IMG/VR virus record: IMGVR_UViG_2706794688_000008
Strand: one strand, 5' to 3'
DNA length: 4,295 nt
Source of the DNA: a virus
Taxonomy: Duplodnaviria; Heunggongvirae; Uroviricota; Caudoviricetes
Numbering within the stretch: position 1 is the stretch's first letter; each line of letters opens with the position of its first letter. Positions 393-4,295 of this stretch are shown one piece after another. Position numbers and translations under genes: made by a program. The notes beneath the pieces are model-generated. The model saw only the letters and a program-made list of their open reading frames with translations, did no database searches and was not told where the DNA came from.

Positions 393-421
393 TTTACATT
401 CAAAAATATCATTTATACTTT
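393..421 (+). promoter_or_regulatory. candidate sigma70 promoter for the plus-strand ORF at 460
   Basis: -35-like TTTACA at 393-398, then either TATACT at 414-419 (15-nt spacer) or TACTTT at 416-421 (17-nt spacer), in AT-rich DNA about 40 nt upstream of the ORF's RBS. Hexamer matching only. Confidence 0.3.
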
Positions 422-459
422 TCAGAACATCACCAGCAAGGCATAAACAAGGAAACTAA

Positions 460-795
460 ATGAAGTGGATTGTGATTGATACAGTTATCCAGCCATCATG
501 CGGAATATCTTTTTCAGTCATATGGAGTAAAATAAAATTAATAATCTGGTATCAATCGGATGCTTTCTTACCTCCTGAAAGTATATTTACACTGACTCAC
601 ACAGGCATCATGCTCAATAACAAAGTGCTACCTGTAACCATTTACAACGTAGTACCATTCAATAAAACATTCTGGAATTCAATCAAAAATAGCCAGGAAT
701 GCCCTACAAATACAGATAACGTATTGAATGAATGCTTTAATAACCGTTGCACTCTGCAAATATGTCCTTATGGACTAAAACAACAAAGTCCATAA
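460..795 (+). CDS. hypothetical protein (111 aa), AT-rich cargo ORF antisense to the phage late operon
   Basis: ATG at 460 is preceded by AAGGAA at 449-454 (5-nt spacer); TAA stop at 793-795. A 336-nt open frame in visibly AT-rich DNA. The C-terminus has four Cys (C-x10-C-x4-C-x4-C). 6 of 13 Ile codons are AUA. I recognise no homolog. Confidence 0.4.
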
Positions 796-816
796 GGAGT
801 TTACTCACATCTGACA

Positions 817-851
817 AAATCAATATAAACAGCCCCTCCGGAGAGGGGCTG
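817..851 (-). terminator. intrinsic terminator (hairpin plus U-rich tract) for minus-strand transcription
   Basis: Perfect 9-bp stem 830-838 / 843-851 (CAGCCCCTC / GAGGGGCTG) with 4-nt loop. On the minus strand it is followed by TTTATATTGATTTTG; on the plus strand there is no U tract after it. Confidence 0.6.
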
Positions 852-926
852 GAGAGTGGCGCTATGTGCCATTGCATGGTGCCGGGTGCCTCCCGGTGAA
901 TTCAGTACCAGCACCTGAATCCGCGA

Positions 927-1053
927 TTATCCCATATACCTACTCGCTGATTGCCCCTCCGCACAGGGGGATTCACCATGCCAGTTTCTTTTAACAAACT
1001 CCCCGCAAACCAGACAACAGTCAACCGCCTGAATTGTGAAGTATTTAAAAATT
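927..1053 (-). CDS. 3' end of an unresolved minus-strand ORF (start hidden in mask or at 1394/1397)
   Basis: Open frame from the mask edge to a TAA stop at 927-929 (tail ...CCLVCGEFVKRNWHGESPCAEGQSASRYMG), about 75 nt upstream of the minus-strand terminator at 830-851. Competes with the plus-strand ORF starting at 978. Confidence 0.25.
978..1053 (+). CDS. 5' end of an unresolved plus-strand ORF (MPVSFNKLPANQTTVNRLNCEVFKN...), continues into mask
   Basis: ATG at 978 is preceded by AGGGGGA at 965-971 (6-nt spacer), a strong Shine-Dalgarno. The frame is open to the mask edge. Mutually exclusive with the minus-strand model over the same bases. Confidence 0.3.
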
Positions 1054-1327
1054 NNNNNNNNNNNNNNNNNNNNNNNNNNNNNNNNNNNNNNNNNNNNNNN
1101 NNNNNNNNNNNNNNNNNNNNNNNNNNNNNNNNNNNNNNNNNNNNNNNNNNNNNNNNNNNNNNNNNNNNNNNNNNNNNNNNNNNNNNNNNNNNNNNNNNNN
1201 NNNNNNNNNNNNNNNNNNNNNNNNNNNNNNNNNNNNNNNNNNNNNNNNNNNNNNNNNNNNNNNNNNNNNNNNNNNNNNNNNNNNNNNNNNNNNNNNNNNN
1301 NNNNNNNNNNNNNNNNNNNNNNNNNNN

Positions 1328-1593
1328 TCCTGAACAAGAGCAAATAATTCTGAATTAGCAACCATGAACTCATCGCAAACCCTCTGTATAGCATCACTAT
1401 TCAGAATAATAACGTCTCTTCCCGAAAGACGATCAGGAGTACAGAACAAAACTGTCAAACGGCTGAAGGCCTTTGCTCGTGCTGCATTGACTATATCAAT
1501 ACGCTGCCTAAGGATGAAACACCCCGACGCCTCATCAATATTCACTCTACCCACACCATATGAATGATAAATATTTAATGCTGAAAAAACCAT
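1328..1593 (-). CDS. 5' part of a hypothetical minus-strand ORF running into mask 1
   Basis: Frame open across the whole visible block from ATG 1593 (in-frame stop at 1624-1626 upstream). No convincing Shine-Dalgarno. 5 of 8 visible Arg codons are AGA/AGG/CGA and 2 of 8 Ile codons are AUA. No recognisable family. Confidence 0.3.
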
Positions 1594-1960
1594 TAGACCG
1601 TATAACAAACACTCAATCAATACTTAACAGAACTTTTATTTTTGACAAACATAAAATATTTTCAACAATATCCTGAGCCAGGNNNNNNNNNNNNNNNNNN
1701 NNNNNNNNNNNNNNNNNNNNNNNNNNNNNNNNNNNNNNNNNNNNNNNNNNNNNNNNNNNNNNNNNNNNNNNNNNNNNNNNNNNNNNNNNNNNNNNNNNNN
1801 NNNNNNNNNNNNNNNNNNNNNNNNNNNNNNNNNNNNNNNNNNNNNNNNNNNNNNNNNNNNNNNNNNNNNNNNNNNNNNNNNNNNNNNNNNNNNNNNNNNN
1901 NNNNNNNNNNNNNNNNNNNNNNNNNNNNNNNNNNNNNNNNNNNNNNNNNNNNNNNNNNNN

Positions 1961-2124: not shown

Positions 2125-2200
2125 TGGTGGCCCTTGCTGGATTTGAACCAGCGACCTGGCGATTATGAGTCGCTCGCTCTCACCACTGAGCTAAAGGGCC
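2125..2200 (-). tRNA. ileZ: tRNA-Ile2 (anticodon CAU, lysidine type; formally could be Met)
   Basis: Full cloverleaf: acceptor GGCCCTT/AAGGGCC, D stem GCTC/GAGC, anticodon loop CTCATAA (anticodon CAT), T stem GCTGG/CCAGC with loop TTCAAAT, discriminator A and encoded CCA. Closely resembles E. coli ileX-type tRNA as I recall it. Confidence 0.85.
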
Positions 2201-2240: not shown

Positions 2241-3348
2241 TCATCCGTTCTGGCTGACTAAATCCTGTACTTCCCGAACCGTCTGCTCAAAACGTTCAGT
2301 CTCCAGCTCAACGCCAATTGCACGACGCCCGAGCGCCAGTGCCGCTTTCACTGTCGAACCCAACCCCATGAAAAAATCTGCAATCAGGTCACCCGGACGA
2401 CTGCTAGCGCTGATTATCTGCTGCAGCATTTCTGCCGGTTTTTCGCACGGATGTTTCCCGGGATAGAACTGCACCGGTTTATGCGTCCACACATCGGTAT
2501 ACGGCACCTGCACCGTCACGCCAAAATACCGCCGCAGATGTTTATATTCACTCAGCAGCTCCGCATACTGCCGGTTCAGTGAGGTATACGTATCCACCAG
2601 CTGGTGGTGGAGCTTTTCCAGTTCACCACGCCGATGCTTCTCTTCTGCCACCCGGGCAAACAGCGCCTGTAATTTCAGATAATCGCTTTCATTCGGCAAC
2701 TGCCACTGACCGGCACTGAACCAGTGCGACACCATGTTTTTCTTTCCTGTGGCATCTGCAATCTGTTTTGCCGTTATCCCCAGGGCAGCTCGCGCATCAC
2801 GAAAGTAAGAAATCAGCGGGGCCATCACATGCTGTTTCAGTGCACTGCCCTTCGCCGCATACCCGGCATCTTTCGGACGATACGGCCCCTGATAATGTTC
2901 CGCGAACAGAATGCGCTCTGTGGCGGGGAAATACGCCCGCAGGCTTTCCTTGTTGCATCCGTTCCAGCGTCCGGACGGCTTCGCCCAGATAATATGGTTC
3001 AGCACACTGAAGCGTTCACGCATCATGATTTCGATATCAGATGCCAGGCGATGACCACAGAACAGGTAAAGACTTCCGGCAGGTTTCAGCNNNNNNNNNN
3101 NNNNNNNNNNNNNNNNNNNNNNNNNNNNNNNNNNNNNNNNNNNNNNNNNNNNNNNNNNNNNNNNNNNNNNNNNNNNNNNNNNNNNNNNNNNNNNNNNNNN
3201 NNNNNNNNNNNNNNNNNNNNNNNNNNNNNNNNNNNNNNNNNNNNNNNNNNNNNNNNNNNNNNNNNNNNNNNNNNNNNNNNNNNNNNNNNNNNNNNNNNNN
3301 NNNNNNNNNNNNNNNNNNNNNNNNNNNNNNNNNNNNNNNNNNNNNNNN
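2241..3348 (-). CDS. DNA methyltransferase, beta-class N6-adenine/N4-cytosine type (PF01555-like); N-terminus and start hidden in mask
   Basis: TGA stop at 2241-2243. Visible 283 aa begins LKPAGSLYLFCGH (the segment that follows the DPPY motif) and ends with an FxGxG-type SAM-binding motif (DFFMGLGSTVKAA); this C-terminal motif order is typical of beta-class enzymes. The DPPY motif itself must lie in the masked block. The six-frame start at TTG 3479 is rejected. Confidence 0.8.
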
Positions 3349-3770: not shown

Positions 3771-3796
3771 ATAAAAAACCCGCTCGGCGGCGGGTT
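3771..3796 (-). terminator. tR'-like intrinsic terminator downstream of PR'
   Basis: 7-bp stem AACCCGC/GCGGGTT (3777-3783 / 3790-3796) with 6-nt loop, followed on the minus strand by TTTTTTAT (3778-3771). Confidence 0.7.
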
Positions 3797-3837
3797 GTAG
3801 AAACTCTTCTAACGTCAGGCATAAAACGCCCATCGTT
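3771..3837 (-). ncRNA. short 6S-like terminated PR' leader transcript (about 65 nt), predicted
   Basis: Inferred from the predicted PR' start near 3837 and the tR' terminator ending near 3771, by analogy with the lambda 6S RNA. Not supported by any expression data. Confidence 0.35.
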
Positions 3838-3871
3838 ATAACGAATTTACCACAGATTCCGGAAAAATCAA
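3829..3871 (-). promoter_or_regulatory. late promoter PR' with extended -10 and sigma70-dependent pause element (Q engagement region)
   Basis: Minus strand: -35 TTGATT (3871-3866), 16-nt spacer, TGG upstream of -10 TAAATT (3849-3844), 6 nt, then AACGATGGG (3837-3829). Hexamers and spacing match my recollection of lambda PR' (TAAATT, 6 nt, AACGATGGG). It starts 6 nt after the Q stop codon. Confidence 0.7.
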
Positions 3872-3876
3872 CCTTG

Positions 3877-4295
3877 TTACCTAGTTACCTTTTTTAACTG
3901 CCGCTCAGCCCATGCTTCTTCAATATCAAACCGGGTCACCAGCGCATCATAAAATTTCTTAACTGTTTTTTCCCATGACGCGCGTGTTATCTGGTTTGTC
4001 ACCTCGCATATAGCATTAAATGCCTCCGTTGATGGTAGTCTTTCATAGCCACGACCACCACAACGCTGGCAGTCTCTGATAACAGGCATACCACGTTTTA
4101 CCGACTCTTCACGATGAATGGCGACACCACGCCCACGGCAATCCTTACAGGCGGTGGAAACCTCACCCTTTCCGCCACACTCCGGACAGGCAACTTTTAC
4201 CACCTCCCTGACTTTTTTCCATTCTTCCCAGTAAGACGGATACACACCTTTCGTACACTTTGCCCATACCGGCGGCTTACCATCCGGATACTGGA
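3877..4295 (-). CDS. Q: antitermination protein Q, lambda-type (5' end beyond window)
   Basis: TAA stop at 3877-3879. The frame is open upstream of the six-frame GTG start at 4245 to the window edge. The C-terminus (CQRCGGRGYERLP...WEKTVKKFYDALV...KKVTR) aligns by eye with the lambda Q C-terminus (CGRCKGVGYSRMP...WSRTVKPLYDALV...NAVTR), and it has CxxC zinc-finger motifs. PR' follows immediately. Confidence 0.85.
   Translation of the reverse strand, partial: QYPDGKPPVWAKCTKGVYPSYWEEWKKVREVVKVACPECGGKGEVSTACKDCRGRGVAIHREESVKRGMPVIRDCQRCGGRGYERLPSTEAFNAICEVTNQITRASWEKTVKKFYDALVTRFDIEEAWAERQLKKVTR

Follow-up and report, generated by a model that had tools for sequence, protein, structure and literature searches.

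Among the small regulatory RNAs already known from E. coli prophages is STnc100 (Rfam RF02076). The copy located downstream of stx2B is known as EcOnc27 in strain Sakai and as sRNA103 in EDL933; it is bound by Hfq and was confirmed by Northern blotting, and its overexpression raised fimZ and espA transcripts (PMC7873438; PMC12711010). In EDL933, 11 transcribed copies of STnc100 were reported, one of which was Northern-confirmed (PMC5331693), and the RNA is also present in outer-membrane vesicles (PMC12370729). RpoD binding was reported at the STnc100 copies of Salmonella LT2 (PMC10794520), and copies beside stx2 were statistically linked to clinical outcome (PMC12711010). AsxR/EcOnc27 and AgvB/EcOnc06 are sRNA dyads of EHEC prophages; these RNAs bind Hfq and are encoded in the interval from the late promoter to the lysis genes (PMC7873438). 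PasD1 and PasD2 of enteropathogenic E. coli are reported structural homologs of STnc100 with a similar setting in the prophage, near Q, esterase and holin genes; they are reportedly too diverged for a BLAST link to STnc100 and have another seed (bioRxiv 10.64898/2026.05.13.724894).

The DNA analyzed here is a stretch of 4,295 nucleotides from an IMG/VR record of a tailed phage (IMGVR_UViG_2706794688_000008), called the window below, in which several runs of bases are masked as N. The best complete-genome matches reached 96% identity to its unmasked parts, and between positions 800 and 1700 the unmasked flanks were 99.8% identical to those of near-identical relatives. The annotation of two relatives (L002 and L003) places every phage late gene on the strand equivalent to the minus strand of the window, in the order antiterminator Q, a 65-aa ORF, a DNA methyltransferase, tRNAs and a DUF3927 protein, with holin and lysozyme later. 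By this comparison the window belongs to a lambdoid prophage of E. coli and covers its late region, with phage late transcription on the minus strand. With the masked bases supplied from the relatives, the minus-strand order in the window is probably Q, methylase, tRNAs, a small gene referred to here as ORF92, DUF3927 and STnc100 with its terminator, and the convergent gene iraM lies opposite. The block 953-1053 is found directly downstream of stx2B in Stx2a phages, and window positions 1054-1680 therefore correspond to the cargo slot that is held by stx in Stx phages.

The window has two intact tRNA genes, tRNA-Arg(TCG) and one with the anticodon CAT, at 2041-2117 and 2125-2200 (minus), and a third tRNA-Arg at about 1984-2030 is partly hidden by the second masked run (mask 2); the middle tRNA is degraded in L002 and L003. 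The trio is the one found upstream of stx in Stx phages. Just downstream of Q, a hairpin resembling a strong terminator (AACCCGCCGCCGAGCGGGTT, then TTTTAT) was found at about 3776-3797 on the minus strand of the window (L002 4704-4723), where tR', the source site of the StxS sRNA in Stx phages, is expected. No Rfam family matched this hairpin.

The minus strand of 821-1010 was matched by the STnc100 model over its full length (model positions 1-206 of 206) with 132.4 bits, a gathering score of 47 and an E-value of 1.3e-29 in cmscan, and the match was reproduced in a repeat scan of a smaller stretch. The published STnc100 qPCR primers (PMC12370729) match window positions 960-979 and 889-908 exactly. 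The minimum free energy fold of the 190 nt (-74.6 kcal/mol, z -2.26 against shuffles) showed the family architecture together with the terminator, which is paired at 831-850. In this fold, an outer helix (874-981, minus; 974-981 pairs with 874-881) encloses hairpin 1 (954-969), whose CCCCU/AGGGG stem is also given by the Rfam alignment, hairpin 3 (898-922), in which the pairs covary strongly, and hairpin 4 (882-896). On these grounds 821-1010 is identified as STnc100, and the hairpin at 830-851 as its terminator. The context agreed as well, as STnc100 lies in the prophage late region, 3' of Q and the cargo genes and on the late-transcript strand, in both annotated relatives, in a Stx2a phage (L124) and in PhiR5_1 (L125).

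For the analysis of covariation, family members were gathered from viral contigs by a two-motif pattern, reduced to 76 diverse representatives and aligned. The hairpins of the two search motifs are invariant by construction and thus uninformative. RNAalifold returned 23 consensus pairs for the 76 members, and compensatory changes were present in eight of these, located in the outer helix and hairpin 3. At columns 136/159 the pair was G-C in 31 members, A-U in 17, U-G in 13, C-G in 8 and U-A in 4, and at columns 38/186 of the outer helix G-C (35 members) and A-U (30 members) were found. Some IMG/VR contigs carry two or three STnc100 copies (L133, L141, L161, L171, L130, L197, L207 and L208), in several cases in tandem and only about 160-260 nt apart. 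In the copy of phage mEp460 (mEp460_ev081, L001 2499-2570), homology is lost at window-equivalent position 873; this copy has another 3' end instead of the CCCCUC terminator hairpin and still scores 114 bits.

The hairpin at 830-851 has a stem of 9 bp, seven of them G-C pairs, and a loop CGGA; it was recovered in a terminator scan of the identical sequence of L002 and corresponds to about positions 178-200 of the Rfam model. A preliminary description of the region, made from the letters of the window, had assigned this hairpin a U tract on the minus strand only, and this is what is present: the U-rich tail, read on the minus strand from 829 to about 811, consists of the T-rich letters TTTATATTGATTTTG. 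On the minus strand the 9-bp stem is followed by TTTATATTGA, as expected for a Rho-independent terminator; in the plus-strand direction GGAGAGTGG comes after the stem, which does not qualify as such. The hairpin is not a chance feature, as the full-length Rfam match of 132 bits has its 3' end there. It does end a minus-strand unit, as had been proposed; that unit is the non-coding STnc100 and not the reading frame ending at 927. In the window copy the U tract is interrupted (UUUAUAUUG) because the iraM module joins straight after the stem, so that this copy may terminate transcription less efficiently than others do.

The gene iraM (anti-adapter protein IraM, 460-795, plus) was identified by NCBIfam NF007393 with 162 bits (cut-off 121) and is annotated by RefSeq in L002 and L003. 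It is the only plus-strand gene nearby, and it converges on the hairpin, its stop lying 35 nt short of 830-851. The hairpin was considered as the terminator of iraM and rejected, since the K-12 iraM locus (L242) has a different hairpin at the equivalent place (ACGGGCG...CGCCCGT, then TTTC), and the hairpin of the window travels with STnc100 where iraM is absent. STnc100 with the same hairpin was found in the iraM-less Stx2a phage, where it starts 75 nt past the stx2B stop, in PhiR5_1, where it lies upstream of an esterase gene, and in two diverged loci (L240 and L237), where it follows a diverged ORF92. Homology of the window to the iraM-less phages ends right after the stem, at the start of the iraM module. 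Because the hairpin accompanies STnc100 in phages that have no iraM, it belongs to the minus-strand RNA; the preliminary description had considered that homologs might show it to be simply the terminator of the upstream plus-strand gene, and the opposite was found. iraM is an independent convergent plus-strand gene, and the module junction is located at the 3' edge of the hairpin stem. As the hairpin is not followed by a U tract on the plus strand, read-through from iraM would run antisense to STnc100. By comparison of window 460-829 (plus) with L242, the prophage iraM is a diverged paralog of that of K-12.

Compared with EcOnc27/sRNA103, the window copy has the same helices, the same terminator hairpin AGCCCCUCUCCGGAGGGGCU and a full-length match to the model, and it likewise lies on the strand of late transcription, with the Q-proximal cargo slot on one side and the lysis genes on the other. 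It differs in that it follows ORF92-DUF3927 and not stx2AB, in that its central variable loop is shorter, and in that the U tract is altered, with the iraM module rather than the esterase gene nanS-p adjoining the stem. With respect to the AsxR and AgvB dyads, the window has iraM in place of the DNA that follows the terminator there, and neither AsxR (RF02703) nor AgvB (RF02702) gave a match on either strand of window 400-1053 at E-values up to 10. IpeX of prophage DLP12, considered as a possible identity of the RNA, was dropped: nmpC of K-12 lies on the opposite strand, ipeX is unannotated in the record, and the locus gave no STnc100 match.

Upstream of STnc100 the window is masked between 1054 and 1327 (mask 1). 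Two long reading frames span this mask, one on the minus strand (927-1397, 156 aa) and one on the plus strand (951-1358, 135 aa), and both are open only because 274 masked N are read as X. The conflict of reading frames is therefore mostly an artefact. Between identical flanks, the stretch equivalent to mask 1 comprised 250 nt in 122 of 123 loci and 247 nt in the remaining one, and with 274 nt the mask is thus longer than in every one of these relatives, by 24 nt in nearly all. Beneath it, the relatives carry the 20 C-terminal codons of the gene that begins at 1593 and a 43-aa ORF, so that mask 1 of the window probably covers the C-terminus of ORF92 and the DUF3927 gene, both on the minus strand, a content taken from the relatives rather than read. 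The difference of 24 nt amounts to 8 codons, and the frames on both sides of the mask hence keep register. Other runs of N are also longer than in every relative (1683-1983, 301 nt versus 81; 3091-3348, 258 nt versus 253), and gapped-pattern scans between the flanks found no version of mask 1 of 251-280 nt in three large collections (viral, genome and metagenome). The masks may not be faithful in length; otherwise the source has rare indels beneath them.

The mask could hide a long minus-strand gene of about 156 aa that runs from GTG 1397 to the stop at 927, shortly before the terminator, and overlaps the gene starting at 1593, given that this frame appears open in the masked window and that the 8 additional codons might mean a different content. 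The overlap of the two minus frames in 1328-1397, which had been pointed out before, does exist in the masked sequence. However, in the 123 relatives with identical flanks the frame from GTG 1397 stops after 27 codons, as an out-of-frame ORF inside the gene starting at 1593, and the frame ending at 927 contains several stops and no start that would give an ORF of at least 25 aa. Moreover, the last 28 codons of such a gene would fall inside the covarying structured RNA, and third-position polymorphism under the mask follows another frame in the relatives, that of DUF3927. A gene of this kind is barely conceivable. On the plus strand, a small protein gene at ATG 978, overlapping the minus-strand unit in antisense, had been suggested by the motif AGGGGGA at 965-971. 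The motif is present and well spaced, 6 nt before the ATG. The ORF also has a weak database echo, as phrog_27294 matches its 28 aa (E 1.5e-14) and PGAP places a partial 'hypothetical protein' pseudogene at window-equivalent positions 866-991 (L002 3567-3692). Against a gene stands that the ORF (978-1064, plus; MPVSFNKLPANQTTVNRLNCEVFKNFSR) has just 28 codons in the relatives, with its stop at window-equivalent 1062-1064 in L002, that it lies antisense to the 5' part of STnc100 and that it has no Pfam match. AGGGGGA is the complement of the 5' arm of STnc100 hairpin 1, and ATG 978-980 that of CAU in the 5' arm of the outer helix. Any start codon at this position was found in only 28 of the 76 family members, and half of these ORFs stop within 2-10 codons. 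The varying base covaries with its RNA partner (the G-C and A-U pairs of columns 38/186), as in an RNA helix and unlike a start codon. The PHROG and PGAP entries are most simply explained as ORF calls on the antisense of a repeated sRNA. The plus-strand motif resembling a ribosome binding site and the ATG are by-products of G+C-rich RNA helices, and a protein gene at 978 is highly improbable.

Two PHROG families (phrog_27294 and phrog_24488) match ORFs antisense to STnc100 (window 866-1064, plus) and look like over-annotation. A minus-strand ORF of 37 aa within the sRNA (914 to 801) was considered as a possible peptide and rejected, as the terminator precedes its stop codon (801-803) and the terminated sRNA would carry no stop. 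While the preliminary description allowed for overlapping or antisense genes, no conserved one was found, and a partner of the AsxR/AgvB type was not detected either. It had left the organisation of the region open; comparison with the relatives closes the competing frames and probably leaves two minus-strand coding genes, ORF92 and DUF3927.

The frame starting at 1593, which had been named as a possible member of the minus-strand unit, is a real gene. It occupies 1267-1593 (minus), its stop being located inside mask 1 at 1267-1269 if the spacing of the relatives to the right flank holds, and it encodes 108 aa from ATG 1593 or 92 aa from GTG 1545-1543, where the conserved core begins (ORF92/108). 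The product matched phrog_2873 over the whole profile (1-108 of 108, E 3.5e-70). Among 23 homologs, which include a clade at 57-60% identity, comparison with that clade gave a dN/dS of 0.26 and differences of 24/22/43 at the three codon positions, and the other frames contained 2-11 stops. Within-clade polymorphism, with 10 non-synonymous and 6 synonymous sites, indicates no clear constraint. Remote homologs from an exhaustive profile search (91-95 aa, 22-39% identity) all start at the position of V17, and the 16 codons upstream of the core are not conserved and are out of frame in the diverged locus L240. For these reasons GTG 1545-1543 is probably the start, which would give a protein of 92 aa. 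Only a weak GGUG element resembling a Shine-Dalgarno sequence precedes this codon, in agreement with the earlier remark that the minus frames have no good Shine-Dalgarno sequence. In the second diverged locus (L237, 2762-3990), an IS3-family element directly precedes the ORF92 homolog, which thereby has a foreign N-terminus (P0017).

The AlphaFold model of ORF92 is a two-helix hairpin with a pLDDT of 74. Foldseek against the PDB returned generic coiled-coil hairpins and no match with an E-value of 0.001 or better, and ORF92 had no match in Pfam, NCBIfam or PADLOC, nor with a PDB sequence profile. One remote homolog is also encoded downstream of Q and a tRNA, at a locus that has no STnc100. The ORF92 DNA segment (window 1328-1682) was found in 1,185 of 5,426 complete E. 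coli genomes, and the sampled RefSeq records had no feature under it (L002 3944-4270). Among 50,697 deposited phage genomes, ORF92 occurs in one (mEp460_ev081), where it is unannotated.

The DUF3927 gene encodes a 43-aa TciB-like small membrane protein (132 nt, minus) and lies wholly inside mask 1, so that its bases were read in the relatives only. Its predicted position in the window falls within 1076-1231, being 1076-1207 when anchored on the left flank and 1100-1231 when anchored on the right. In L002 the ORF occupies 3777-3908 (WP_000562553.1). The 43-aa product of the relatives resembles both described families: it matched Pfam PF13064 with 95.6 bits (cut-off 25) and phrog_1470 ('TciB-like') with an E-value of 7.8e-13. 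Across the 123 loci, 12 of 18 polymorphic sites are at codon position 3, and 11 are synonymous. In the diverged clade of L240 (4280-4510) the DUF3927 frame is broken and split across frames. A literature search on DUF3927 and TciB returned nothing relevant.

STnc100 starts only about 65 nt past the DUF3927 stop. Rather than being a trans-acting sRNA with a transcript of its own, the element at 821-1010 might act mainly in cis: it would give the ORF92-DUF3927 mRNA a structured 3' UTR with a terminator and serve as an insulator ahead of the lysis genes. A hexamer resembling a -10 element (TANNNT) was found at a fixed distance in 48 of the 76 family members, mostly 8 nt upstream of GGUGAAUCC (22 ± 4 in shuffles), and the subfamily of the window has TGTTAAAAG (TAAAAG) where most members have TANNNT. 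The deviation from the canonical hexamer speaks for a cis role, as does the closeness to the DUF3927 stop. Many enterobacterial sRNAs are derived from 3' UTRs, which also counts in its favour. On the other hand, the copy that was detected as a discrete Hfq-bound RNA 3' of stx2B belongs to the same subfamily (with TAAAAA at this place), and RpoD binding was reported at the STnc100 copies of Salmonella LT2 (PMC10794520). Roles in cis and in trans are, moreover, not mutually exclusive. We therefore regard a mainly cis-acting element as unlikely, though deserving of some weight. The RNA of the window copy may come from a promoter of its own or from processing of a longer transcript.

Taken together, it is very likely that the region consists of a late-operon ORF92-DUF3927 cassette followed by STnc100, which ends at the terminator 830-851. 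The cassette, located in the slot of the Shiga toxin genes, would provide a helical protein of about 92 aa and a DUF3927 membrane protein of 43 aa, with STnc100 following. In the lysogen, STnc100 would accumulate as a discrete Hfq-bound RNA that ends at the terminator, at 821-829, and the same terminator may also keep transcription of the cassette and the sRNA out of the lysis genes. Upon induction, Q-modified polymerase would be expected to read through it. Conservation of the helical protein of about 92 aa reaches from E. coli prophages to homologs as remote as 30-40% identity. That the ORF92-DUF3927 pair in the Shiga-toxin slot represents an uncharacterised module of lysogenic conversion or phage exclusion is a speculative proposal, to which we give little probability.

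The region is thus ordinary: a known sRNA that ends in its terminator is accompanied by two small cargo genes, and the remaining frames are artefacts that span a mask. All three components belong to described families. ORF callers and some family libraries carry ORFs that are antisense to STnc100, namely phrog_27294, phrog_24488 and the partial 'hypothetical protein' of PGAP. Correct annotation of STnc100 is of some applied interest because of the link of copies beside stx2 to clinical outcome (PMC12711010), to which the window itself adds nothing. About a fifth of complete E. coli genomes contain the DNA of the conserved cargo gene of about 92 aa, which RefSeq appears to leave without annotation. 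The value of the analysis lies mainly in the clean-up, as a prophage sRNA that had been described before, together with two small cargo genes, accounts for what appeared to be overlapping or antisense genes.
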